Below are positions 2,744 through 58,730 of a DNA stretch of 64,000 nt, in pieces. The notes beneath the pieces are model-generated. The model was not told where the DNA came from. It saw nothing but the letters and a program-made list of their open reading frames with translations, and searched no databases. Source of the stretch: a virus. Numbering within the stretch: the first letter of the stretch is position 1; the number at the start of each line of letters is the position of its first letter. The translations under genes were made by a program, and so were the position numbers. The stretch lies in UHGV virus genome UHGV-0240527, one strand, 5' to 3'.

Positions 2744-3016
2744 ATGTATACTACTAACAATGGCCGCACTTTGAACGTCACACTACGTCACTATGTAGGT
2801 GGTGTCATGCACTTTGAAGATTTACAAGCTGAACAACATATCTTAGATTGGCAAGTAGCAGGACTCCAAAAAACTGCTACCGGATACGGCAAAAAGATTC
2901 CAACTAGCTGGAAAGTTCACTATGAAGGCCGTTTACGTAGAATTTATCAGGATGTATGTAGTAATAGCACATCAAGTTATATCATAGTAAAAGGTAAAAA
3001 GCTGCATTTAGCATAA
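2744..3016 (+). CDS. hypothetical early protein
   Basis: ORF track frame; start moved from 2699 to the ATG at 2744 that follows the conserved GGAG RBS (2699 lies inside the UTR hairpin). Confidence 0.55.
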   Translation: MYTTNNGRTLNVTLRHYVGGVMHFEDLQAEQHILDWQVAGLQKTATGYGKKIPTSWKVHYEGRLRRIYQDVCSNSTSSYIIVKGKKLHLA

Positions 3017-3101
3017 AGTACTTTACAAGGGGCTTATAGTTCGATAAAGTAAGCCCCAGATAAAGAGCTTTATCACTCAATCCTAAATTGGAGATTCAAA
3101 A
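3017..3101 (+). promoter_or_regulatory. family A intergenic cassette
   Basis: conserved promoter/hairpin/UTR module. Confidence 0.5.
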
Positions 3102-3506
3102 ATGACTATTAATAATCGTGAGTTATCAATCTTAAAAGCACGTTTGACCGTTAACCGGATTAATGTTATTACGTCATCAGCACCGGATGAGACATTGCAC
3201 AACATTATCGGGAAGATTCAAAGTGTTATCTTAGACGTTGAAAACGTAAAAAATTCATTAGCTGACGTTGCAGCAGGTATCACGCTAGACGGTGCACAAT
3301 ATGAAATGGCTGACATGTTAGGCAAATCTAAGGTAATGAATAAAGAGCTTGATTTAAAAATGTTCCGCTTTGCCGTGAAAGTGTGGCTATCTGTCGAGTA
3401 TGACGCAAATTTTGCAATCGCTGACTTTTTCGCAACATGGTTGCAACGTAATTTAACAAATCATGATTTCCGTGATATCTGCGACGTAATTTACGCAGAA
3501 CTTTAA
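3102..3506 (+). CDS. hypothetical early protein
   Basis: ORF track; cassette upstream. Confidence 0.6.
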   Translation: MTINNRELSILKARLTVNRINVITSSAPDETLHNIIGKIQSVILDVENVKNSLADVAAGITLDGAQYEMADMLGKSKVMNKELDLKMFRFAVKVWLSVEYDANFAIADFFATWLQRNLTNHDFRDICDVIYAEL

Positions 3507-3609
3507 AAATTTCTCTTGATTTTGGTTTTTAAAACAAGTAAATTACTAATCAACGGGGAGGGAATGACCTTCCCCACTAAGTAAAGTCCTTAAACTAGGA
3601 GATTCAAAA
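3507..3609 (+). promoter_or_regulatory. family B intergenic cassette
   Basis: TTGATT and TAAATT hexamers, GGGGAGGG..CCTTCCCC hairpin, GGAG RBS. Confidence 0.5.
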
Positions 3610-3813
3610 ATGGCTATTATTAACGGCTTAAACATTGAAACTACTCACATCAAAGATATCAAAGTTGGTGATATAGTCCTTTTTCACGGCGTAGAAAAAA
3701 CCGTCACTGAAAAGGATATCAAGGAGGATTCATTCATGGGCCGGACTCTCTTCGGTGATTCCTATTGCTTAGGTTACCTTGCAGTTTTAAAAGTTGTCAA
3801 AAATAACCGTTAA
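3610..3813 (+). CDS. hypothetical early protein
   Basis: ORF track; cassette upstream. Confidence 0.6.
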   Translation: MAIINGLNIETTHIKDIKVGDIVLFHGVEKTVTEKDIKEDSFMGRTLFGDSYCLGYLAVLKVVKNNR

Positions 3814-3899
3814 AGTACTTTACAAGGGGTTTATAGTTCGATAAAGTAAGCCCCAGATAAAGAGCTTTACCACATTAATCCTAAACTGGAGATTCAAAA
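3814..3899 (+). promoter_or_regulatory. family A intergenic cassette
   Basis: conserved promoter/hairpin/UTR module. Confidence 0.5.
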
Positions 3900-4442
3900 A
3901 TGAAATGCTTTCACGGTACTACTCAAGAAAACTTCGTCAACCTGATTAATAACGGTGATAAACCATCAGGCGCATGGAATTGTTCGGATATGGATGGCAA
4001 TTTTTACGTTTATCCAGAAAATAAAATCTATGGCGACGATGAGGAAGAAATAATCTCTGAAGGCATTCAACAAGCTTTAGGTAATGCCACTATAACGGCA
4101 GCTTTTCAGATGAAAACTCAAAACATTGTTATCTTGGAACTTGATATTCCAGAAGATGAGTTGAATGATGATTATTCTTGTGATAATATGTCGAGTGTGG
4201 CAAGTTTTACAGAGTATTTTGATATAAGCTGGATTAAAAAGGTTTATATCACTGAATTTAATGCTATGTTTTCACCTTTTTGTCTTCCTTCACTGGATAA
4301 CCCGAACTTAAACTATCTTGATGAGTCTCTGGAACTTCTCGCTAAAAGTGTTCAGCAATCGGACAGTATTCAGGTTTTTTGTGACATCATGGATACACTA
4401 ACAGGAAACATTGCAGAAGAGGATTTGAAGAGTTTTTTCTAA
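3900..4442 (+). CDS. hypothetical early protein (acidic)
   Basis: ORF track; cassette upstream. Confidence 0.6.
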   Translation: MKCFHGTTQENFVNLINNGDKPSGAWNCSDMDGNFYVYPENKIYGDDEEEIISEGIQQALGNATITAAFQMKTQNIVILELDIPEDELNDDYSCDNMSSVASFTEYFDISWIKKVYITEFNAMFSPFCLPSLDNPNLNYLDESLELLAKSVQQSDSIQVFCDIMDTLTGNIAEEDLKSFF

Positions 4443-4742: not shown

Positions 4743-4831
4743 ACAAGCCTGATAAAAGTCTGTAAATTACACATCAACGGGGAGGGAATGACCTTCCCCA
4801 CTAAATAAAGTCCTAAACTGGAGTTATCAAG
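4743..4831 (+). promoter_or_regulatory. family B intergenic cassette
   Basis: TAAATT -10, GGGGAGGGAATGACCTTCCCC hairpin, conserved UTR. Confidence 0.5.
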
Positions 4832-5095
4832 ATGGAAAACGTAGAATTAACCACACTATTGCAGATTGCAACTGATAAAGAGGATGTAGCATTGTTCCAT
4901 CGCATCGAGAGTGATTTGTTCAATGGTGAAATCATCAAAGAGTCTTACGAAGTTGTCGGATTCAAAGATGGTAAAGCATTTGGCTTTTTTGACCTCGACA
5001 AAGGTAACGCGGTTACAAAGTACGATGTTCTATCTTGTGAAATTCTGACAAAATACAACGAAAAAAGGCTTGCAACCTACGCCAATATGCAGTAA
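4832..5095 (+). CDS. hypothetical early protein
   Basis: ORF track; cassette upstream. Confidence 0.55.
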   Translation: MENVELTTLLQIATDKEDVALFHRIESDLFNGEIIKESYEVVGFKDGKAFGFFDLDKGNAVTKYDVLSCEILTKYNEKRLATYANMQ

Positions 5096-5175
5096 ATTAC
5101 TAATCAACGGGGAGGGGATGACCTTCCCCACTAAATAAAACCCTTAAACTACTTCCTAAACTGGAGATTCAAAAA
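5096..5175 (+). promoter_or_regulatory. family B intergenic cassette
   Basis: TAAATT -10, GGGGAGGGGATGACCTTCCCC hairpin, conserved UTR. Confidence 0.5.
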
Positions 5176-5424: not shown

Positions 5425-5462
5425 TCGACGCAACGGGGCTATTTAGCCCCAGATACCTTTAC

Positions 5463-5490
5463 AGCCCCTTTCTCATAGGGGCTTTTTTAC
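5463..5490 (+). terminator. intrinsic terminator closing the early cluster
   Basis: AGCCCCT..AGGGGCT stem followed by TTTTTT; preceded by a family A-type GGGGCTA..TAGCCCC hairpin. Confidence 0.6.
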
Positions 5491-7095
5491 GTCTCTGTAA
5501 TAGCCTCTATACAACCCTTTCCCTTCCCTTTCCAGAATCTATCCCACTAATTCGATAGAATCTATCCCGTACCTTAAAAGCAATAACTCTATAGTCTACT
5601 CTATAACCTCTTATCAAATCAACTTAAATAAAAGCCCATAACCCGAAAGGGAAGGGCAACCATTTAAACGCTCTATAAAGCCCTATAACAGCCTTATCAA
5701 CCTAACTTAAGGGATTGCATTAACCCACTCTAAAAAGCCCTTTATAGAGCTTCCCAGAGCCTTAGAAGAATCTTATAAGGGTGTAAGCTTTATCATCTCG
5801 TTAGTATTCTTGTGAACTACTAAAAAGGGCTTGGTAGTTCCTTTAAAGTATGTTATAGGGGCTATAAAGTTACTTTGAAGTAGCTTAAAAGTTACGTAAA
5901 TGCTAGCCCCCTTAACATTTTCTTAACAATTTCTTAACAAACCCTACATAGTTATGCTTGTTAGAGACTTGTTAGCCCCTTGTTAAATCTCTGTTAAGAC
6001 CACGTAAAAGCCTTGTAAGAGTCTTTAGCATAGCCTTTAAAGCCTCTGTAAAGCCCTATAAAGAGCTATCCATACAGTTGAGGGGTAGATACTAGGAAGA
6101 GACTTAAAAGAGCTTATAAAGAGCTATAGAGAGCTTTTAAGAGGTATGTTTAGAGAATCACTAAGTAAGAGAGGGAACGATAAGGAAGAGTTAGTGACCA
6201 TGTTAATAGCTTGTTAAAAAGATTAAACACTTGTTAGGAACTTGTTAATTATCCCTACAAAATAACTCTTTAAAATTAACTTGTTAGCTCTTGTTAGTCA
6301 TCTGTTAAGATTCTGTAAAGTCTATGTATCAACTGTTAAGAAACTGTTACATCCTTGTTAGTTCTGTTAAGAATCTGTTAAGACCTTTGGAGAGATGTTA
6401 AGAGCTTGTGAGAACTGTTAAGAGATTGTTAAGGATATTTTAAAATTCTGCAAAGGGATGGTAAGGGAGTTGTTAAGGGTTACCAAGCAGATATACATCC
6501 TAATCAGATATTTTTGAGTTCCTTCAAAGACCCTAAAAAATGACTTGATAGTCCTATTTTATAAAAATTTTAAAAATCTGAATAATTACCTAGACAGTCT
6601 TTTAAAAATACAGGTAGAAACAGGCTTATAAGATACCTTGTTAGTACCGTGTTAGACCTTGTGAGATAAGGTCTGTGAAGATATTCCTGTTAAGTTTGTT
6701 AAAACAGTCTATATAGAGGTTTAGTAATACCTAGTGAACACCTATAGAGGGTAACATAGCTTACCTAGAGATTAAGAGGTGTATAGAGGCTTCTAAGAGC
6801 GTATAGAGAGATGGTTAAGGTGATTGTATAGGTTGTTAAGAAGGCTTGTTAGAAGATTGTTTATAAGGCTTATTAAAGGGCTAGTTAGAAGGCTTATACA
6901 GGGGGCTATTAAGACCACTAGATAGTTACTAAGATACTATATAGTACTATATAACTATATAGAGAGTAAGATTAAGGAGGTTGTTAAGAAGGATAGATAT
7001 TTTGTTCACATATGCTGGTGACCCAGAGGTTGGGACAACCGATAAAATTTTATAAAAATTAAAAAAGCCCCCAATTAAGGAGGCTCTTAAGGTAT
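5490..7095. repeat. 1.6-kb non-coding region dense in short direct repeats (TGTTAAG/TGTTAGG family, CTATAAAG/CTTAAAAG family)
   Basis: no ORF of 60 aa or more on either strand in the track; dozens of YTGTTARG copies read directly, e.g. around 5950-6010 and 6190-6480. Confidence 0.7.
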
Positions 7096-7097
7096 TT

Positions 7098-7721
7098 TTA
7101 AATCAGTGTTTCCAGAACTGTTTTTAGTGATGACTTGGTTGTCTGATAAAAATGAGTAAAGCCGTTGTTGTTATCGAATATCTGCATCATGATATCATCT
7201 CCCTTGATTGGGTATACTCGGATATCATAGTGAAAACCATTAAAGACACAAGACCCATTACAGAATGCACTAAAGTCATCCACTGAGATATACTCTTCAT
7301 GTCCTGTGATTTTTATACAGATACCTTTACTCGGTCTCTTAGGATTAATATCTTCCATCACAGACATATTCTGTCCACCAAGAGATACCATAGTGACCAC
7401 TTTACGGTTCTTCTGTCTAAAGTACATCTTAACTTTCTGCAAAGTGTCTTCATAGAACGGATAAGACCTAGCTACAAAGATTCCTTCAAGTGGCTCTTTA
7501 CCATTTTCAACTTCTCTGGTATGTCGTACTGCAAAGATAATTTGTTGGAACCAGTTAAGATTTTCTTCGGAGAGTGCTTCTCGAACATCACTCCAGTCAA
7601 GGACTAAGTAGTTACCTTCAACTTCTTTTAAGTTATCTTTTTCCATATCTATCACACCATTATCGTAAAACTTGATATTCTGGTACTGCGAATTTATTAC
7701 TATTGTTCTTGATGAGGTCAT
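7098..7721 (-). CDS. hypothetical protein
   Basis: ORF track; first gene of long minus-strand operon (last transcribed). Confidence 0.45.
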   Translation of the reverse strand: MTSSRTIVINSQYQNIKFYDNGVIDMEKDNLKEVEGNYLVLDWSDVREALSEENLNWFQQIIFAVRHTREVENGKEPLEGIFVARSYPFYEDTLQKVKMYFRQKNRKVVTMVSLGGQNMSVMEDINPKRPSKGICIKITGHEEYISVDDFSAFCNGSCVFNGFHYDIRVYPIKGDDIMMQIFDNNNGFTHFYQTTKSSLKTVLETLI

Positions 7722-12283: not shown

Positions 12284-12748
12284 TTACTTTGGGTATACAC
12301 TGTCAAGGTAAATATCAGCTTCCATTCTGCGTCTGTTTTTAAGACCGTTTGAAGTGACCTTCTCACCTTTGACCGTTACCTTGTTCCACCACTGCATAGC
12401 TTCTGCACAACCTACCTTATTACCAGCGTTGTGGCGCTTGATAAATGTAGAGTCCTGCATAGCCGTGATACCGATGTTGTATGTTTCACTAACAAGGGCA
12501 TCAAACTCATTTTGAGTGGTTGGGGTTTTGATTGCTTTGTTGACTGCACTGACAAACTTTTCAACATCAGCAAGAAGATACTGTTCAGCCTGTGCCTCAG
12601 TAATCTTCATACCCATTTTGACAGGTCTTCCATCAATACGGATTGTCCCGTAACCAATTGTTGGGATTCCGGCAGAATCTTTGTAAGCCTCTAACTCCAG
12701 ACCTTCGAAGAACTTAATAGCGTCTAAACCTTTTCTTGAGAGTTGCAT
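12284..12748 (-). CDS. endolysin, GH24 phage lysozyme (T4/P22 gp19-type)
   Basis: N-terminal EGLELEAYKDSAGIPTIGYG matches the catalytic Glu / Asp / Thr region of T4-type lysozymes; size 154 aa. Confidence 0.8.
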   Translation of the reverse strand: MQLSRKGLDAIKFFEGLELEAYKDSAGIPTIGYGTIRIDGRPVKMGMKITEAQAEQYLLADVEKFVSAVNKAIKTPTTQNEFDALVSETYNIGITAMQDSTFIKRHNAGNKVGCAEAMQWWNKVTVKGEKVTSNGLKNRRRMEADIYLDSVYPK

Positions 12749-15008: not shown

Positions 15009-15053
15009 TAAGTCTCCTTTGTAGAACAAGGCAGACCTACAGCTTTAAGTAAG

Positions 15054-15083
15054 ATGGTACAGTAATCCATACAACAAGTCAAG
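15054..15083 (-). promoter_or_regulatory. candidate sigma70-type promoter for the minus-strand operon (TTGACT, 18-bp spacer, TACCAT)
   Basis: hexamers read on the reverse complement; weak -10. Confidence 0.3.
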
Positions 15084-15105
15084 AACTATTGCAAGTTAAA
15101 AAAGT

Positions 15106-15130
15106 TGTTGACAAAGTACTTGACAAGGTG
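15106..15130 (+). promoter_or_regulatory. conserved tandem TTGACA element (GTTGACAAAGTACTTGACAAGGTG) in divergent promoter region
   Basis: near-identical 23-mer recurs at about 58109-58133 in the other divergent intergenic region. Confidence 0.45.
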
Positions 15131-15257
15131 TAGGCTTATAAATACTTAGAAGATAACTTAAAAGGTTCCTCTAAAAAGGCTATTTAAACAGATATCTTTC
15201 TGGATATCTATCTTTTATCTTAAAAGCCTTTTAAGAGGTCTTATAAGAGGCATACCA

Positions 15258-15629
15258 ATGAAAAACAGAACAAACAAAGGCCAGTTTAAAAAAGGCCAAT
15301 CTGGAAACCCATCTGGAAGACCAAAAGGCTCTCGCAACAAAAGCTCACTTGTAAAAGCTCAACTGACCATTGACAATTCTGCTGAGTTTGCTGCAAAGTT
15401 ATTTGAAGCGATTGTTACAAGGGATGCTGCTAAGCTTGCAGAGTTCGGGTTAAACACAGATGACGTAACCATCAAGAGTATGATTGAGGTCGGTAAAACT
15501 ATCTTTACTCACTCAGCAGGTGAGATGAAAGCACTTGCAGCAGACACTAAGAAGACTCCTGATAATGGTGGTCAACAACAGACAGATAACAAACCAACGT
15601 TCTCTGCTGTAGCGACTCTTAAAAAATAA
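15258..15629 (+). CDS. hypothetical basic protein with N-terminal GNPSGRPKG motif
   Basis: ORF track; lysine/arginine-rich N-terminus; motif read directly, function not assigned. Confidence 0.55.
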   Translation: MKNRTNKGQFKKGQSGNPSGRPKGSRNKSSLVKAQLTIDNSAEFAAKLFEAIVTRDAAKLAEFGLNTDDVTIKSMIEVGKTIFTHSAGEMKALAADTKKTPDNGGQQQTDNKPTFSAVATLKK

Positions 15630-15710: not shown

Positions 15711-17126
15711 ATGAGCGAATTATTTAAACATGCGCACCTTCATGCAGGTCGAACTGAAAATGGTGCTGTAAACCATACTTCATCAATGTCTGCTCTTGTA
15801 GACTTTTACAAAGCTGCTGGTTCAAGCCGTAGCAATGTAGAAATCTTACCAGACTTGTTCTACAAAGCTTTGCGTGAGGATGTTGATGTTGCAGTTCGTA
15901 TTTTGCTTCATATGCGAGATGTACGAGAAGGTATGGGTGAGCGTAAAGCCTTCAGAACTGTTTTGCTTCAAGCAATTGAAGATAAAGTTTTAGAGCCTAC
16001 ACAGGTTCTTCGCATTATGGATAAGATTGCAGAACTTGGTCGTTTTGATGACTTCAAAATCTTCGTGGGTACTTGTTTCGAGACAGATGCCTTCAAACAT
16101 TTAGAAGCAGCATTACTAGACCCTGCAACAGCAGGTTTGGCGGCTAAGTGGTTACCACGAGTCAAACCACGTCATAAGCAGTTTGTAAAACGTTTCTGCA
16201 AGTTTGCCAACTTGAGCGAGAAAGAGTACCGCACACTGTTATCTGCACTATCTGATACAGTTGAGCAAAAAATCTCTGCTAATGAGTTTGGCAAGATTGA
16301 CTACAGTAAGGTTCCCTCACTTGCTGCTGCACGTTACCAAAAACTGTTTAACCGTAAGGATGGAGAACGTTACAAAGCTTACATTGAGTCCTTATCAAAA
16401 GGTGAGGCTAAGATTAATGCTGGTGCTGTTTACCCATACGATGTGATTAAATCTGTCAAGCATGGTAATGCAGATGTTGCTAATGAGCAGTGGAAAGCAC
16501 TACCAAACTGGATGGCAGAAGGTGAAAACATCTTGTGTATGTCTGATGTATCAAGTTCAATGTCTTGGGTGAATTTTGGCTCCATTACTGCTCTGGATAT
16601 TGGTGTATCACTTGCCTTGTATGTAGCAGAACGCAATACAGGTTGCTTTAAGAATGAGTTGATGGTTTATTCAACAAACCCTCACTTCATCGAACTGAGT
16701 GGTGATTTACGAAACCGTCATCGTCAGGTGATGCGACACGTTGAATATGGCTCAACTAACTTACAAGCAGCTTTTGACCGCATTCTTGAGACAGGCAAAA
16801 GAAACAACTTGACTCAGAAAGATATGCCAAGTAAGCTTATCATCTTCTCCGATATGGAGTTTAATCAGGTTGATGGGGCTAACGGTCGTACAAACTTTGA
16901 AGCAATTCAGAGTAAGTACAAAAAAGCTGGATATGAGATGCCACAACTGGTATTCTGGTACTTAGCAAACCGTAATGGTACTTGCGAAGTATCTGTTAAG
17001 GATAACGGTGTAGCAATGGTATCAGGGTTCTCTCCAGCCACTTTAAAAGCTCTGCTTGGTGGTGAGAAGTTTGACCCAATCAGTGTAATGCTCAAAGCAG
17101 TAATGATTGACCGTTATATCTGGTAA
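15711..17126 (+). CDS. vWA-domain protein with Ro60/TROVE-like architecture (candidate RNA-binding protein)
   Basis: C-terminal MIDAS-like DxSxS (MSDVSSSMSW) and downstream FSDMEF; about 270-aa helical N-terminal region; family assignment is from architecture only. Confidence 0.45.
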   Translation: MSELFKHAHLHAGRTENGAVNHTSSMSALVDFYKAAGSSRSNVEILPDLFYKALREDVDVAVRILLHMRDVREGMGERKAFRTVLLQAIEDKVLEPTQVLRIMDKIAELGRFDDFKIFVGTCFETDAFKHLEAALLDPATAGLAAKWLPRVKPRHKQFVKRFCKFANLSEKEYRTLLSALSDTVEQKISANEFGKIDYSKVPSLAAARYQKLFNRKDGERYKAYIESLSKGEAKINAGAVYPYDVIKSVKHGNADVANEQWKALPNWMAEGENILCMSDVSSSMSWVNFGSITALDIGVSLALYVAERNTGCFKNELMVYSTNPHFIELSGDLRNRHRQVMRHVEYGSTNLQAAFDRILETGKRNNLTQKDMPSKLIIFSDMEFNQVDGANGRTNFEAIQSKYKKAGYEMPQLVFWYLANRNGTCEVSVKDNGVAMVSGFSPATLKALLGGEKFDPISVMLKAVMIDRYIW

Positions 17127-17144
17127 AAAGTTTTAAAAAGGGTA

Positions 17145-17173
17145 TTGACAATGTGTTTAATACCCTTTAATAT
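17145..17173 (+). promoter_or_regulatory. sigma70-type promoter (TTGACA, 17 bp, TAATAT) flanked by inverted repeat AAGGGTATT/AATACCCTT
   Basis: hexamers and spacing read directly; lies upstream of tRNA array. Confidence 0.5.
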
Positions 17174-17235
17174 GTTCTACATAGAAACGAAATGAGAGCT
17201 TTTCTAAGATACTGAAAAATATTTTAAAAAAGTTC

Positions 17236-17264
17236 TTGACAACCACTAAAAAATAATGTTAAAG
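17236..17264 (+). promoter_or_regulatory. candidate second promoter upstream of tRNA array (TTGACA, weak -10)
   Basis: TTGACA at 17236-17241; -10 ambiguous. Confidence 0.3.
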
Positions 17265-17291
17265 TGTTTACATAGAGTTTGAAAAGTTTAT

Positions 17292-17368
17292 CTCTGTTTA
17301 GCTCAGCTTGGTAGAGCGTTCCGTTTGGGGCGGTAAGGCCGGAGGTTCAAGTCCTCCAACAGAGACCA
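17292..17368 (+). tRNA. tRNA-Pro (anticodon UGG)
   Basis: manual cloverleaf: 7-bp acceptor CTCTGTT/AACAGAG, T-loop TTCAAGT, anticodon loop TTTGGGG, CCA encoded. Confidence 0.65.
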
Positions 17369-17375
17369 AATTAAT

Positions 17376-17453
17376 GTTCCAGTAGACAAAATGGTAAAGT
17401 CACCACTCTTTCAAAGTGGATATCTGAGGGTTCAAATCCCTTCTGGAACGCCA
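17376..17453 (+). tRNA. tRNA-Glu (anticodon UUC)
   Basis: 7-bp acceptor GTTCCAG/CTGGAAC, anticodon stem CCACT/AGTGG, loop CTTTCAA, CCA encoded. Confidence 0.7.
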
Positions 17454-17543
17454 GTTTTGACAGAAGACCAATTACAGCAAACTTAATCTACTCATCTGAA
17501 AGTTAATCGGACAAAGAAGATATTTGGTCTGGTCATTAAGAAT

Positions 17544-17620
17544 TGCGGGTATAGAGAAAGGGCGTCTCACATGTCTCATTAGCATGGTATCGGCAGGTTC
17601 GACTCCTGCACCCGCCTCCA
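17544..17620 (+). tRNA. tRNA with CAU anticodon (Met, initiator or Ile2); non-canonical features
   Basis: T-arm GCAGG/CCTGC and 6 of 7 acceptor pairs with 1:72 mismatch; anticodon loop CTCATTA; 3-nt 8/9 linker. Confidence 0.45.
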
Positions 17621-17703
17621 AATTTACAGAAGACCGTTTACAGCAATATTTATTAAATTTTTAGCGGAAAAATTGAAAGATACGGTCTGGTAATACTAAA
17701 CAT

Positions 17704-20949: not shown

Positions 20950-21503
20950 GATACTTAAAGTATGCTTCATGGATTTTCTTAGCTTTGTTAGAGCCATTTG
21001 CAGCAATCTTAGCAGTTATCTTAGCACCTTTTGTAGTTCCATTCTACAGTGAGAAGAAAGGACACTTACCTTTCGGGTTCAGATGGATGGAGACATATGA
21101 CAACCCAATTGATGGTGATGAAGGTCACGTTAAAAGATGGGCTAATATTAGATGGATTGGTAAGCTGGGTGTCTACATGCAGAGAGTTGGATGGCTCTGG
21201 AGAAACAAAGCTTATAACTTCTCTTACCATGTATTAGGAAGAGATGTAAAAGATGTTACTAAGTGGAAAGGTAATATCAACGTAAGTTCTGACCCCGAAG
21301 ATAATCAGACAGGTTATCTCCTAATGTGGAACAGTAATGCTTGGGGATTATTCGCTTTTATCCCATCAATTAAAATCTTTGGTAAACAATTTTACTGGAG
21401 AATTTATATTGGATGGAAACTAAAAAGTGTTGTCCCAGAAGAAAGAGCATTCTCAAGGGAAAGAGTTATGTTGGCATTCTTTATTCATCCACTGAGAAAG
21501 TAA
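20946..21503 (+). CDS. hypothetical membrane protein (embedded in tRNA array)
   Basis: ORF track; hydrophobic N-terminus WIFLALLEPFAAILAVILAPFVVPF; start overlaps upstream stop. Confidence 0.5.
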   Translation: MRYLKYASWIFLALLEPFAAILAVILAPFVVPFYSEKKGHLPFGFRWMETYDNPIDGDEGHVKRWANIRWIGKLGVYMQRVGWLWRNKAYNFSYHVLGRDVKDVTKWKGNINVSSDPEDNQTGYLLMWNSNAWGLFAFIPSIKIFGKQFYWRIYIGWKLKSVVPEERAFSRERVMLAFFIHPLRK

Positions 21504-49630: not shown

Positions 49631-49960
49631 TTAATCTGCCAACCTTAAATTGAAATTAACACCAAATTTTTCACATACTTCCAACATATACTCAAGAGAG
49701 ACATTACCAGTGAGGTGGATTATGTTGGATACACGAGCCTGAGAAATACCACAAATTTTAGCAACTTGCTCTTGAGAAAGACCTCTGGATTTAATCTCTC
49801 TCTTAAAACGATGTGCAACGAAATCTCTCATTTCGTCTACATCCATTGGACAAATATAACTCTCCATTTCAGCCTCTCTATCAGCCTCCCAATCATCTTG
49901 TGGGGCGTAAGGGTCAAAAACCTCATTCATCTTTCTTCTTCCGTTTGCGTGAAGTGTCAA
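49631..49960 (-). CDS. putative helix-turn-helix DNA-binding protein
   Basis: LSQEQVAKICGISQARVSNI resembles HTH motif. Confidence 0.5.
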   Translation of the reverse strand: MTLHANGRRKMNEVFDPYAPQDDWEADREAEMESYICPMDVDEMRDFVAHRFKREIKSRGLSQEQVAKICGISQARVSNIIHLTGNVSLEYMLEVCEKFGVNFNLRLAD

Positions 49961-50520: not shown

Positions 50521-50559
50521 AATGACCTCAAAGTTATATTAAATTTTGTATTACGTTGA

Positions 50560-50985
50560 GTATAAAAATAAGCTATAACACCTGACTTGTCAACAGATTT
50601 TATAGCTTATTTGGCAGATTTTTTATAAGGCTACTGCCATCCTTCCATACCAAACCCGACCTCACCTCACAAAACCATACCAAACCCAACCCTACCTGAC
50701 CAGACCTCACCTCACCAAGCATTACTTAAAAACCCTCTTAGAAGACTCTTAAGTGATGTAAGTCTCATTTTAATGTAGCTGAGACTAACTACCCACACCG
50801 AACCTCACCTGACCTAACCGTGCCTTACCACACCTCACTTAAAAACCCTTTTAAAAGACTCTTAAGTGATGTAATCGAATTTTTATGTAGCTCCGATTAA
50901 CTACCCGCACTTTACCAAACCTCACCCTACCCTACCAGACCTTACCTAACCGCGCCGTACCTCATTAAAAGACCCTCTTAAAGAC
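50560..50985. repeat. composite repeat region: CA-rich ACC-type tracts plus conserved modules M1 (AAAAACCCTCTTAGAAGACTCTTAAGTGATG) and M2 (TAAGTCTCATTTTAATGTAGCTGAGACTAACTACCCACACC)
   Basis: modules read directly in two copies here and again at 52225-52390. Confidence 0.6.
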
Positions 50986-55350: not shown

Positions 55351-58050
55351 TTAGTGAACCTCAAGCCAGCTTTTACCAACCTTACCATTACCTGTAACAA
55401 GTGTTTCTTTCTTAAGACCTAAGTTTTTAGAAGCTTGTCCATAATACCAGTCAGTAACTGCTTTCACTTCTGCCGTCATACTTTCTGGACATTCCCAGCT
55501 TGTTTCATCGTGATATGCGCAGAGTAAACGAGCACCAATAGCTGGTTGACGACCATTCAACTTCATCAAACCTTCGTCAATCATACGACGACAAGCAAGG
55601 TTAATTGCCTCATTTTGAATCTGAGCCTCTGAACCCATCAAAAGATAATTCAACAGTTTGTGTGGAGATTTACACCACAACCAAGCTCCAGCAACCTTTA
55701 CGAAACCCCCTTTAGAGATTGCAGCAGTCTTACCAAACACCTCTTCAAGTGCCTTTTTAGTTGCTTTGTAGTCAGCTTCTAAGTCATCTAACAGCTTCTT
55801 AATTTTAGGCAAACGGATAAAGTAAGTCTGTTTAGTCAGTGCACCTTCCTGAGTAGTTGCAGCTTTAATTGTCTTAGCAAACTTCTCATCACCTGCACCG
55901 AACAGCAGTGCATAGATACCATTCTTAGCTTTCTTACGACCCTTGCTAATCTCATGAAGAAGATTCTCATCCTGAGTAGCTCGACAAGTCAAGATATCTT
56001 GCTCATCATTCAAGCTAAAGTAAATACTATTCAGTGTGTGTGCATCAGTCCCTGAATAGACAACGTAAAGGTCATTCTCAGAGTCATAGCGAAGGTACTT
56101 ATCAATCTCTGGGTTGAGGTACTCATCAAAATGTTTGCAGTAATAGCGTCCATCTTCTTGACGAATAAACTCAATCTCTTCTTTACCTTGCGTTACCGCT
56201 TTGGTGAAGTCTTTGTCACCCATAAAGTTACAAAGGAGAACTAGCTGGGCTGAGTTCATGTCTACAGAGACAACATTAGTACCTTCTTCACAAATCCACA
56301 CTGCCCTCATTGGCTCCCCATAGACAGCAGCACCAGACGGTACGTTTACAATACCATATTGTGTCATACGTCCAGTTGAAGTACCAAATACCATTGCACC
56401 AGCACTAAGGCGACCATCTGGACGAATCTGGTTCAGCCAACCTTTCTCGTCATCCTTTGAGTTCTCAATAGTTCTGCGTCGGTGCATCAAAGTATAGTAC
56501 TTCGCAATCTTCTGTCCAAGCTCACCTTCAATCGTATCATAAGATGATTCAGTAAGTTTTGGTGAAGTACGGATTAAGCAAGGCTCAAGCAAATCTGTGT
56601 ATTTCTTCACAGACCAGTTATGCTCGATGTACTGTACACCTTCATGTTCAACATAACTCAAACCACACCGCTCAACCATTTCCTGCCACTTAGGATGCTT
56701 TGTAATCATCTTTTTATTGTCTTTGAAACGACAAACTTTGACAGGGCGACCATCTGAGTCTTTCTTGTAATTCCAGTCATCTGGAATCCAACCAACTGAT
56801 TTCAAGTAGTCTTTAACAACTGCTACCTGAGTCATACGAGAAACTTCAAACTCAATTGGTGTATATGGTGCATCAATCAATCCTGTGTAGCGACTTGACT
56901 CCAGTTCAAAGTGGTTAACAACATGGCTGTTATAGTACTTCACAGTTTTAACAGTTTTTACTGGCTTCCAGTCTTTGCATTTCTTACCAATCTTTGCATT
57001 CAACTCGTTGCAAATTGCACGAGCATCCTTCATTGCTACAAAGCCTTCCTTGTACTCTTCACCAGTTACAGAGTTGGTTGGTGTATAGCAATTTCTCTTT
57101 TCAATGTTAAAAATCTTTGTAGTTGGCTTACCAAATGGCTTGATTTCGTATGTCTGCATCTCACCGTTACGTACCTGCTGACGATACTTTGTTTTAGGGT
57201 ACTTGGTAATTCTCTTCAGTCCATCTGCATGACCGAATGTTTCAACATACTCATTCCAAGCTTTTGCAAACTCTTCTCCAGTGACTTTACCTTTGGTCTT
57301 AATAGTTGGAGGTAGATGTGGTTCAACCTCTGAAGCAAGTTCATTAGTCAATTTGTCAAGCTCCTTTACATGGAACTCCATAAGCTCCTTATCAGCTTTC
57401 CAACCATTGATAGCTTGTTGGCTCATCCAGAAAGATGTCTCTTTAGCTCGCATGTAAGTTTCATAAGTGTCTATACCACACTTCTTAAGCTTGAGATACT
57501 CGTTATCAAGTGCCCGTTTAGTTTTGGCGTTAATACGGATATCTTCTACAACACGAGTGAAGATTTCTGCATTCCACACACCCCAATGTTCAATCTCTGG
57601 TTTACGAACACCAACACGAGCACCCCATGCAGCCAAGCCATGAGCGCCTTTATAACCCTTTGGAGTTGGTCTATCCATCCACTGAACACGAGACTGGATA
57701 AGAGAATCCTGAAAGAAATTACTCCACGGCTTACACTTTGGATTATCAAAGTTCCATAAATCCGGTGCAATGTGATTGAAAACCCACCAGTCATAACCGA
57801 GACCATTATGGATACAAAGTCGTTTTGCCTTCAACGCAAACTCAATACCTTCACGTAATCCACCCTTGATGTACTTAGTGTACTTGTGACCGAGAATAGG
57901 CTCATCAGTAAAGACCCATACTGGTGGTTCTTCGTCGTCAGATTTGTAGTCTGCGAAAGCCATTACGTGAACTTTAGTGAACTCAAGGAGTAAACCATCA
58001 GTTTCTGTATCACCAACTAAATGTAAGTTTTTAAAATCTACGTTTTCCAT
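55351..58050 (-). CDS. DNA polymerase, family A, with 3'-5' exonuclease domain
   Basis: N-terminal exo motif LHLVGDTETDG; C-terminal motif C region LLCAYHDETSWE; about 900 aa; start placed at ATG with GAGGGAG RBS. Confidence 0.8.
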   Translation of the reverse strand: MENVDFKNLHLVGDTETDGLLLEFTKVHVMAFADYKSDDEEPPVWVFTDEPILGHKYTKYIKGGLREGIEFALKAKRLCIHNGLGYDWWVFNHIAPDLWNFDNPKCKPWSNFFQDSLIQSRVQWMDRPTPKGYKGAHGLAAWGARVGVRKPEIEHWGVWNAEIFTRVVEDIRINAKTKRALDNEYLKLKKCGIDTYETYMRAKETSFWMSQQAINGWKADKELMEFHVKELDKLTNELASEVEPHLPPTIKTKGKVTGEEFAKAWNEYVETFGHADGLKRITKYPKTKYRQQVRNGEMQTYEIKPFGKPTTKIFNIEKRNCYTPTNSVTGEEYKEGFVAMKDARAICNELNAKIGKKCKDWKPVKTVKTVKYYNSHVVNHFELESSRYTGLIDAPYTPIEFEVSRMTQVAVVKDYLKSVGWIPDDWNYKKDSDGRPVKVCRFKDNKKMITKHPKWQEMVERCGLSYVEHEGVQYIEHNWSVKKYTDLLEPCLIRTSPKLTESSYDTIEGELGQKIAKYYTLMHRRRTIENSKDDEKGWLNQIRPDGRLSAGAMVFGTSTGRMTQYGIVNVPSGAAVYGEPMRAVWICEEGTNVVSVDMNSAQLVLLCNFMGDKDFTKAVTQGKEEIEFIRQEDGRYYCKHFDEYLNPEIDKYLRYDSENDLYVVYSGTDAHTLNSIYFSLNDEQDILTCRATQDENLLHEISKGRKKAKNGIYALLFGAGDEKFAKTIKAATTQEGALTKQTYFIRLPKIKKLLDDLEADYKATKKALEEVFGKTAAISKGGFVKVAGAWLWCKSPHKLLNYLLMGSEAQIQNEAINLACRRMIDEGLMKLNGRQPAIGARLLCAYHDETSWECPESMTAEVKAVTDWYYGQASKNLGLKKETLVTGNGKVGKSWLEVH

Positions 58051-58108
58051 TTTTACTCCCTCTAAAATCATTAACCTCATACATTACTGCAAAAAATTAT
58101 AAAAAGCA

Positions 58109-58133
58109 AGTTGACAATGTACTTGACAAGGTG
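58109..58133 (+). promoter_or_regulatory. conserved tandem TTGACA element (GTTGACAATGTACTTGACAAGGTG), second copy
   Basis: matches 15106-15130 element; lies in divergent region between polymerase operon and plus-strand genes. Confidence 0.45.
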
Positions 58134-58307
58134 TTAATCTTTGCGAAGTGGGTTTTTACTTAAAAGGTTACTTAACAGTTTAACTATACAGATACTTTAA
58201 AGCTCTTAAAAGATTATTTAATAGCTTTTAAAAAGCTTTAAAGTATAACGTATAGAATACGTTAAGATAAAAGATTAAAACTTAATAGTTACTTAAAAGA
58301 GGCTTAC

Positions 58308-58730
58308 ATGCAGAAAATGTTTGTTCACCCAGACATAGCTGACTTTGTTAGAGCTTTGCAGAAGTTGGAAGAACTTGACATTGCTGCTCAACGGGAATAT
58401 GCTCACCATCACAGGAGAATGGTTGATATACAACATGAAATAGAGTTATCAGAAGACTATGAAGATGACTTAAAATGCTCTGTGTTCGAGCACATGAAAG
58501 ACGTTGCTATAGCTAGACGTAAAGCTAAAGATACAGTTGCTTTACTAGATTCTCTTAAAAAGAGGTTGCAAAGTGGTACAGACCTGTGTAATCTAGCATC
58601 ACTGATTAACGATGTTGAAACTTCTTGGGACAGGCATTACTATCCACGTTCTGAAAAGACACTTGACTTTTCTTCATCTGAAAACTTAAAATGCTCTAGA
58701 AAGAAACTTAACCAACTGAGAGAGAAATAA
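58308..58730 (+). CDS. hypothetical protein
   Basis: ORF track. Confidence 0.5.
   Translation: MQKMFVHPDIADFVRALQKLEELDIAAQREYAHHHRRMVDIQHEIELSEDYEDDLKCSVFEHMKDVAIARRKAKDTVALLDSLKKRLQSGTDLCNLASLINDVETSWDRHYYPRSEKTLDFSSSENLKCSRKKLNQLREK

Follow-up and report, generated by a model that had tools for sequence, protein, structure and literature searches.

Felix O1-like phages are widely used for the typing and biocontrol of Salmonella and E. coli. The 2010 Felix O1 genome paper described the same four transcription units that are found here, with a single promoter ("P41 TTGACA(N15)TATAGG") at one of the two divergent junctions and none found at the junction next to the DNA polymerase gene; no phage polymerase or sigma-modifying protein is known for Felix O1, no AsiA or MotA homologs were reported and its temporal control is not understood (PMC3185647). 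The paper on the related phage wV8 has nothing on promoters. Here, we analyse a 64,000-nt stretch of a virus genome, UHGV-0240527 (the window), which shares 98-99.7% identity with Felixounavirus genomes, momo and wV8 among them, and in which a doubled TTGACA element occupies both divergent junctions. The two hexamers are referred to below as hexamer 1 (upstream) and hexamer 2 (downstream).

Several described systems place a -35-like or phage-specific element at an unusual distance from the -10. At lambda PR', a -35-like TTGACT is bound by sigma region 4 in Q-engaged paused complexes, at a distance of 1 bp from a -10-like element, which indicates that binding over a short spacer is physically possible. 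The lambda CII and P22 C1 sites are TTGC-N6-TTGC direct repeats that straddle the -35, in promoters whose own -35 is poor when they depend on CII. In T4 middle promoters, a MotA box (TGCTTtA) lies at -30, 11-13 bp from the -10, and sigma is appropriated by AsiA and MotA. Finally, the Z-element of the T7 A1 and A2 promoters is read by the beta' zipper at -22 to -18 and contributes most where the -10 is weak, with AACCT, AACAT and AATGT as known sequences (Yuzenkova et al. 2011; PMC3173786). As far as our literature searches reach, a conserved second consensus -35 hexamer within the spacer has not been described previously.

The element in the window is an exact 24-mer, GTTGACAAWGTACTTGACAAGGTG, which is present in two copies on the plus strand, at 15107-15130 (site 1, W=A) and at 58110-58133 (site 2, W=T). 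A first-pass annotation, made from the sequence alone, had reported a 23-bp element in both divergent promoter regions; the two copies are real and each does lie in one of the two divergent intergenic regions of the genome, but the coordinates given were one base off and the element measures 24 nt. The additional copies that the same annotation proposed to look for did not appear, since no third copy of GTTGACAAWGTACTTGACAAGGTG is present in the window at up to 3 mismatches (0 in 100 shuffles). The simpler pattern TTGACA-N6-TTGACA is likewise found at just these two positions of the window, against a shuffle mean of 0.015, and in the complete wV8 genome a TTGACA pair with a 12-bp period is restricted to sites 1 and 2. 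A pair with a 13-bp period is present at wV8 12517 and has been lost in the phage of the window.

The two sites correspond to the gene 40/41 and gene 96/97 junctions of Felix O1 (PMC3185647). Site 1 is flanked by small minus-strand genes, ending near 15010, and by a plus-strand DUF5681 gene at 15258, beyond which lie a tRNA cluster and then the structural genes. Site 2 is flanked by the minus-strand DNA polymerase gene (55351-58080) and by a plus-strand gene at 58308, in a rightward block of replication and nucleotide-metabolism genes. The likeness between the sites extends past the 24-mer, to an A-tract that immediately precedes it, to ACTTAAAAGGTT some 25 bp beyond it and, further on, to ACAGATA. 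Both copies are oriented toward the downstream plus-strand genes and have leader features in common.

In order to avoid selecting on the element itself, relatives were retrieved from IMG/VR and metagenomes through conserved leader or flanking sequence. This yielded 47 loci for site 1, collapsing to 13 distinct sequences from Felixounavirus, Suspvirus, Mooglevirus and other relatives, and, via a downstream anchor, 8 distinct sequences for site 2. The resulting footprint reads, in order, an A-tract, an invariant TTGACA, six variable positions, an invariant TTGACAA, two variable positions, TG and TAnnnT. At site 1, the A-tract is kept in 13/13 distinct variants, the six positions between the hexamers read AAGTAC, AAGGAC, AAGCAC, AGGTAC, AATGAC, TTCCTC, AGCCTC or AGGGGA, and the -10 reads TAGGCT, TAGCCT, TAAGTT or TAGTGT, with T, A and the final T fixed around a middle of GGC, GCC, AGT or GTG. 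The TG is kept in the IMG/VR and metagenome variants, with TA at this position in Felix O1. At site 2, both hexamers are again invariant while 4/6 of the positions between them vary, followed by TG(T/G)TA(A/G)TCT. TAnnnT begins 17 bp past hexamer 1 at site 1 and 18 bp past it at site 2. As judged from these alignments, fixed T-12, A-11 and T-7 around a free middle are the signature of a minimal sigma70 -10.

Hexamer 1 offers a 6/6 match to the -35 consensus at 15108 and 58111, invariant in all relatives, and a -10 with a 3/6 consensus match follows it at 17 bp (TAGGCT) or 18 bp (TAATCT), with none for hexamer 2. An extended -10, with TG one base before the hexamer, is present at site 2 (TGtTAATCT) and in the third tandem promoter, described below (TGgTAACTT, TGaTAGATT); at site 1 the TG abuts the -10 with no intervening base. 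The upstream context TTTTAAAAAAGTTG-TTGACA-N16-18-TAnnnT is common to hexamer 1 and eight other intergenic promoters of the window. Furthermore, several relatives have a single hexamer at the equivalent places: Pectobacterium phage Wc4-1 has TTGACA-N17-TAGGCT, with the same -10 as site 1, and Erwinia phages have TTGACA-N17-TACATT, TTTACA-N17-TACACT and TTGACA-N16-TAGAAT. Because of this shared context, of the single-hexamer relatives, of the -10s found at 17 bp in a T4-like lineage (see below) and of the lack of a TAnnnT partner for hexamer 2, hexamer 1 is assigned as the -35, and both sites are likely to be sigma70-type promoters of the two rightward operons. Felix O1 itself reads TTGACA AAGCAC TTGACA AGGTA TAGGCT at site 1, so the published "N15-TATAGG" is the same promoter in another register. 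In phage AYO145A, a GenBank "promoter" feature of 35 bp (NC_028825.1, 24198-24232) runs from the first TTGACA to a TATAAA, an annotation that is geometrically inconsistent, as neither hexamer fits at the stated N15-18.

These results also bear on how the element had been understood at first. The suggestion of a shared, conserved transcription signal at both divergent regions is borne out by the footprint of the relatives, and so is the view that this is no ordinary single-hexamer promoter, as the second TTGACA is under selection without a -10 partner. The statement that neither TTGACA has a convincing -10 holds insofar as no near-consensus -10 exists, but it overlooks the conserved minimal TAnnnT 17 or 18 bp past hexamer 1. 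The preference for something other than a plain sigma70 promoter fares worse: the A-rich context is common to other promoters, TAnnnT is conserved at 17/18 bp with a free middle, and the T4-like lineage has the same layout with a near-consensus -10 exactly 17 bp from hexamer 1.

In the mechanism proposed here, both promoters would be read by host sigma70 RNA polymerase and would launch two rightward units, one with the DUF5681 gene, the tRNAs and the structural genes, and the other with the replication and nucleotide-metabolism genes. Promoter grammar and conservation suggest that the upstream A-tract acts in an UP-element-like manner (at site 1 it resembles what we take to be the proximal subsite of the UP consensus) and that hexamer 1 serves as the -35, paired with the minimal -10 TAGGCT at 17 bp or with TGnTAATCT at 18 bp. 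The predicted transcription starts, some 7 nt past the -10, lie near 15143 and 58147. More speculatively, hexamer 2, at about -23 to -18 in the spacer, may be an auxiliary element read by RNA polymerase itself rather than a -35 that serves another promoter. Sigma region 4 could use it as an additional place to dock, leading to faster capture or to a hand-over during escape, or it could make a Z-element-like spacer contact; either role would support promoters that have merely a minimal -10. The Z-type contact is considered because the zipper contact matters most at a weak -10, as in the tandem promoters of the Felix clade, all three of which have a minimal -10 while the single-hexamer promoters score 4-5/6. 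As an account of the whole, host-sigma70 promoter cores with hexamer 2 as an auxiliary element seem the best explanation, and one for which belief and doubt are evenly balanced. The coordinates of the features are listed in Table 1.

Table 1. Promoter elements, candidate promoters and predicted leaders in the window
Feature	Position	Strand	Remarks
A-rich upstream tract TAAAAAAGTTG, site 1	15097..15107	+	abuts hexamer 1; kept in 13 distinct variants
Hexamer 1 TTGACA, site 1, putative -35	15108..15113	+	invariant in 47 loci (13 sequences); TAnnnT at 17 bp
Hexamer 2 TTGACAA, site 1, spacer at about -23 to -17	15120..15126	+	invariant; flanking 6 nt and 2 nt vary
TG + minimal -10 TAGGCT, site 1	15129..15136 (hexamer 15131-15136)	+	conserved T, A and final T
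A-rich upstream tract TATAAAAAGCAAG, site 2	58098..58110	+	
Hexamer 1 TTGACA, site 2, putative -35	58111..58116	+	invariant in 8 distinct variants
Hexamer 2 TTGACAA, site 2, spacer at about -24 to -18	58123..58129	+	invariant; preceding N6 varies at four positions
TGn + minimal -10 TAATCT (extended form), site 2	58132..58140 (hexamer 58135-58140)	+	variants TGtTAATCT, TGgTAGTCT
Leftward promoter candidate TTGACT-17-TACCAT, site 1	15054..15082	-	from promoter scan; region 100% conserved across three genera
Leftward promoter candidate TTGCTT-17-TAATGT, DNA polymerase operon	58081..58109	-	read from sequence, below scan threshold; tentative
Promoters with TTTTAAAAAAGTTG context	15642, 17145, 17236, 18698, 62934	+	
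Promoters with TTTTAAAAAAGTTG context	55344, 52443, 50593	-	
Predicted leader, DUF5681/tRNA/structural operon	15143..15257	+	start predicted; nearly invariant across three genera
Predicted leader, gene 97-type replication operon	58147..58307	+	ACTTAAAAGGTT at 58158-58169, nested hairpins

The layout with a doubled -35 recurs at five independent loci, namely site 1, site 2, wV8 12517 with its Moogle ortholog, position 16494 of Erwinia phage phiEa21-4 and a promoter of a T4-like lineage. In all of them, a TAnnnT follows hexamer 1 at 17-18 bp, and none follows hexamer 2 at 16-19 bp. The wV8 12517 promoter reads TTGACA ATACCCA TTGACA TTGG TAACTT and its Moogle ortholog TTGACA ATACCCC TTGACA TTGA TAGATT, with the hexamers and the TGn kept and the middle of the -10 varying. 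This third doubled -35 promoter, with a 13-bp period and a TGn extended -10, is placed at wV8 12505-12560 and at about 10067 on the reverse strand of Moogle; at 3784-3800 of the window it is replaced by an early-type promoter, with AAAAGTTGTCAAAAATAACCG as a remnant. The phiEa21-4 promoter reads TTGACA TTCTAC TTGACA GGGGC TAAAGT.

A pattern scan revealed the same layout in unrelated T4-like fragments that encode UvsW, UvsY and a metallophosphatase, and whose closest isolates are the pelagiphage Mosig, the Methylophilales phage Melnitz and cyanomyoviruses, at 57% amino-acid identity or less. Exactly 17 bp past hexamer 1, these promoters have TATAGT, TATCAT, TACAGT, TAAAGT or TATTAT. They lie between a DUF6561 gene and a 180-amino-acid open reading frame (ORF), at 3901-3936 of contig L047, at 2768-2799 of contig L062 and in about 18 other IMG/VR contigs, and are antisense to the DUF6561-uvsW genes, which may make this an early antisense promoter. 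Hexamer 2 is kept in 15/18 of the T4-like members, one variant being TTGCCA. When the frame AAAGTTG-TTGACA-N15-TG-TA (AAAGTTGTTGACA-N15-TGTA) was scanned with hexamer 2 left unspecified, 92 distinct sequences were obtained, nearly all with a good -10. A second exact TTGACA was present in the spacer of 19/92, with the same offset in 18 and a shift by a single base in one, and these 19 were confined to the Ounavirinae and the T4-like family. Clustering by flanks gave about 59 independent families, among which a TTGACA at that offset would be expected 0.018 times and was observed in two, which are unrelated to each other.

With regard to what hexamer 2 does, one alternative is a pair of overlapping promoters in which each hexamer is a -35, with starts 12 bp apart. 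TACTTA does lie 17 bp past hexamer 2 at site 1, and the Felixounavirus sequence AAGTAC-TTGACA-AGG is nearly that of the early-promoter -35 context AAGTAC-TTTACA-AGG. However, TACTTA and its variant CACTTA lack the essential final T, and the same position reads AAGTGG at site 2, GGGGGT at wV8 12517, AGGGTT in phiEa21-4 and TGTTCC in the T4-like lineage, none of which is -10-like. No TAnnnT is present 16-18 bp downstream of hexamer 2 at site 1, no -10 was located 16-19 bp downstream of it at site 2, and 0/5 loci have a TAnnnT 16-19 bp downstream, so that hexamer 2 was rejected as the -35 of a second promoter. The early promoters of Moogle do not have the flank of its hexamer 2 either (AAAGTAC or AATTGC against TTCCTC in the tandem N6), and a co-evolution of this flank with the early-promoter -35 context is not supported. 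Overlapping promoters are thus regarded as very improbable.

A second alternative is that the two TTGACAA repeats are an operator, bound by a phage protein of the Cro/C1 helix-turn-helix (HTH) type or by a host factor, which would cover the -35 and the spacer and jointly switch both rightward operons and the third tandem promoter. This would suit direct repeats with a conserved seventh base and the weak -10s of the tandem promoters, which are frequent in regulated promoters. Moreover, a single HTH_3 protein (E = 6e-10) is encoded by the phage, also matching Sigma70_r4 below threshold, and the HTH is found in Felixounavirus, Suspvirus and Mooglevirus and not in the Erwinia and Pectobacterium relatives, where sites 1 and 2 each have one hexamer. 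This phyletic link between the regulator and the tandem layout, which first looked good, amounts to a single clade contrast and is undercut by two lineages: in phiEa21-4, which has no homolog of the HTH (best tblastn E = 3.3), a tandem promoter with this geometry is nevertheless present at 16494, and the geometry is also conserved in the aquatic T4-like lineage, with very different hosts and no HTH accompanying the layout. Regulator and site therefore do not co-occur across genomes. A phage-specific regulator becomes less likely as a result, the phiEa21-4 case makes a reader that belongs to the polymerase itself preferable to a regulator specific to Felix, and the aquatic setting of the T4-like lineage points to the bacterial polymerase as the common reader. 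In addition, a repeat spacing of 12 or 13 bp and a distance of 4-6 bp to the -10 are unsuited to a rigid dimer, the unit that is conserved coincides exactly with the -35 consensus of sigma70, and a palindromic reading of the repeats, CTTGACAAG, is not kept in Moogle. On the sequence evidence, an operator appears unlikely.

The HTH protein itself (49631-49960, minus strand; 109 amino acids, 99 as annotated in wV8) is of the Cro/C1 type, is encoded in the leftward polymerase operon and is the only recognisable DNA-binding protein near these operons; it is absent from Kolesnikvirus as well as from the Pectobacterium relatives. A search of solved structures with it matched only a designed repeat protein. 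Upstream of the block containing its gene, a TTGACA-17-TATTTT promoter at about 50545-50610 on the minus strand is bracketed by a perfect 10-bp inverted repeat, TAAGCTATAA ... TTATAGCTTA, which could be an autoregulatory operator or a terminator hairpin.

In a third alternative, the two hexamers would be used in two registers, with the host polymerase engaging hexamer 1 at 17-18 bp and a polymerase with a repositioned sigma region 4 engaging hexamer 2, at 4-6 bp from the -10, which would keep the operons active throughout infection. The repositioning could be brought about by a phage factor or occur during escape, when nascent RNA frees region 4 from the beta flap. Such a switch would account for selection on a perfect -35 consensus that lacks a -10 at the normal distance, and the short-spacer binding at lambda PR' counts in its favour. 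The transcription timing of Felix O1 is also not understood (PMC3185647). Against it, no sigma-remodelling protein is recognisable in Felix O1 (PMC3185647) or among the ten proteins scanned here, and the layout is also present in lineages with very different gene sets. We consider it improbable.

It has also been considered that the element is not transcriptional at all, being part of a replication origin or a packaging signal, or a neutral relic of a 12-bp duplication. The sites lie about 43 kb apart on a genome of about 88 kb, and they adjoin structured, word-rich non-coding DNA. Nonetheless, the footprint obeys the grammar of a promoter at each position, and a neutral relic would vary as its neighbour bases do. 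Had a working promoter undergone a 12-bp duplication, the downstream copy would be the one at 17 bp from the -10, whereas here it is the upstream one. These explanations are very improbable indeed, more so than any other considered here.

Other candidates were tried and rejected. For a leftward role, TTGTCA-18-TGcAATAGT can be read at site 1 when hexamer 1 is reverse-complemented; site 2 has no equivalent, and the element is about 25 bp closer to the leftward promoter at one site than at the other. The leftward candidate at site 2 stands back-to-back with hexamer 1, and Moogle has TTGCTT-17-TAGGGT at the same place. The DNA polymerase ORF as mechanically called starts at 58080; its true start is probably the ATG at 58050, in view of the conserved ribosome-binding site (GGGAGTAAAAATG, region 58048-58080) and of this predicted leftward promoter. 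Motifs for CRP, FNR, the PhoB box, IHF, LexA, sigma32, sigma54, sigma28 and sigma24, compared informally, by eye, through their consensus sequences, do not fit the conserved positions or the spacing. A T4-type late promoter sequence, TATAAATA, is present at 15137-15144 and is not conserved in Suspvirus or Mooglevirus.

The proposal that hexamer 2 acts through RNA polymerase rather than through a dedicated regulator stands at, or slightly short of, an even balance. Several points weigh against it and against the wider account of sigma70 cores with an auxiliary hexamer. Literature searches found no start-site mapping, RNA sequencing or binding data for Felix O1-like phages, and the -10s of the two sites match the consensus at only 3/6 positions, so that the scan tool makes no call. 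The register from hexamer 2 to the -10 varies between 4, 5 and 6 bp, and we know of no state of RNA polymerase in which, during initiation, a -35 hexamer is read at 4-6 bp upstream of the -10. An operator would likewise be compatible with the conserved seventh base (A) and the weak -10, and the recurrence in two lineages amounts to one independent replicate, with p ~0.02. As for the Z-element, the similarity is weak (GACAA against AACAT, 3/5, with a 1-nt shift needed at site 1), and a Z-element model does not explain the invariance of the full TTGACA hexamer.

A stronger form of the same idea, that a perfect -35 hexamer 4-6 bp upstream of the -10, added to a normal -35, is a distinct basal promoter element, is doubtful. 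If it were true, sigma region 4 or the beta' zipper would land on the element when the polymerase takes up a second conformation, with a role in capture, escape or sigma retention, and the element would have evolved independently in unrelated phages of very different hosts, driving key operons from weak -10s.

Downstream of both promoters lie structured leaders. That of site 1 contains ACTTAAAAGGTT at 15156-15167 and a long hairpin at 15157-15247, with a fold z = -2.6 and 33 pairs, 1 of them compensatory, and that of site 2 has a fold z = -3.9 and 30 pairs, 2 of them compensatory, so that the covariation support for the leader hairpins is modest. An Rfam search of the leaders returned only sub-threshold microRNA noise. 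Words of the form CTT-W-W-[ATC]-AG occur 127 times in the window against 34 expected (about 4-fold), in near-palindromic forms (CTTAAAAG, CTTTAAAG, CTTAACAG and CTTAATAG), and are most densely clustered in the two leaders (15150-15350 and 58150-58350) and in an ORF-free region at 5.4-7.1 kb. The site 2 leader is the densest cluster of the window, with 7 words per 200 bp against a shuffle maximum of 3. In phiEa21-4, the equivalent leaders are the two densest word windows genome-wide (21100-21300 and 64750-64950), and the promoters there are single-hexamer. The leader words may thus be a conserved control element at the protein or RNA level, independent of the doubled -35, and if any shared regulator site exists at the divergent regions, they suit that role better than the TTGACA pair does.

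The ORF-free region, at 5433-7098, is a 1.6-kb stretch without ORF or tRNA where rightward early genes meet leftward genes. Dozens of iterated words (CTGTTAAG, CTTGTTAG, CTATAAAG and TATAGAG) fill this stretch, which could be a replication origin or a protein-binding array; the equivalent ORF-free region of phiEa21-4 (16471-17660) begins with the tandem -35 promoter. The early genes of the window contain two further families of repeats. A repeat of about 106 nt is present in six copies (487-592, 956-1061, 1335-1440, 1936-2041, 3006-3111 and 3803-3908) and contains a TTTACA-N17-TAAAGT promoter, whose spacer and -10 lie inside an inverted repeat, GGGGCTTA-N13-TAAGCCCC. This inverted repeat is kept by compensatory changes (GGGGCTAT/ATAGCCCC at 1936) and one G-T pair (3803), and could be a hairpin in read-through RNA or an operator. 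In the second family (2672-2732, 3537-3597, 4761-4821 and 5091-5151), a promoter of the type TTGAYW-N17-TAAATT precedes a conserved hairpin (GGGGAGGGAATGACCTTCCCC) and a ribosome-binding region common to the copies. Felix O1-like or Kolesnikvirus-like sequence is present in three database records filed under the names of Staphylococcus phage SA1 (GU169904.1), Campylobacter phage A126 (MG065668.1) and Listeria phage LPML1 (OK283618.1); the SA1 record is 97.6% identical over site 1, and the three are probably chimeric or mislabelled.

The analysis places the putative promoters of 2/4 of the Felix O1-like transcription units and points to a small conserved class with a doubled -35 and a minimal -10. 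As the geometry is also conserved in a T4-like lineage that is unrelated, it provides a simple case, open to testing, of a strongly selected spacer element beyond current promoter models, and if the polymerase itself reads the second -35, this would have a bearing on the prediction of promoter strength and on the design of synthetic promoters.

When compared with the known systems, the element agrees in part with each. T4 middle promoters also have a phage-specific element that replaces or supplements the -35 to retarget the host polymerase, but neither site contains a MotA box and the spacing is wrong, so this class was set aside. Like the CII and C1 sites, the element is made of short direct repeats spaced by roughly one turn of the helix, around the -35 of phage promoters whose -10 is weak; it differs in its 12-13 bp period, against 10, and in a unit that is the -35 consensus itself, a perfect -35, and no CII-family protein was identified, so that a CII-type site was also rejected. 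The lambda PR' module resembles it in having a second -35-like hexamer near the promoter, at a non-canonical short distance from a -10-type element. The lambda element, however, lies downstream of the -10, beside a -10-like pause element at +1 to +6, whereas hexamer 2 lies upstream of the -10, the pause position reads AAGTGG at site 2 and TACTTA at site 1 with no conserved pause-type hexamer, and no Q-like protein is known here; a PR'-type pause module was discarded.

The Z-element agrees in position, since the conserved spacer element lies here at about -22 to -18, in the segment contacted by the zipper, but the full TTGACA(A) is conserved, only its ACA core is common to both and the register shifts by +/-1. 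There is also a likeness to canonical sigma70 promoters with an UP element and an extended -10, such as the strong early coliphage promoters: the A-tract abuts TTGACA, the spacer is 17-18 bp long, TAnnnT follows, with a TGn at site 2, and the sites are intergenic, oriented to the downstream genes and share their upstream context with the other promoters of the phage. They depart from this model in the second, perfect and equally conserved -35 within the spacer, in the 3/6 match of the -10 and in the TG that abuts the -10 at site 1. As far as can be judged from sequence, the element belongs to the sigma70 promoter class.

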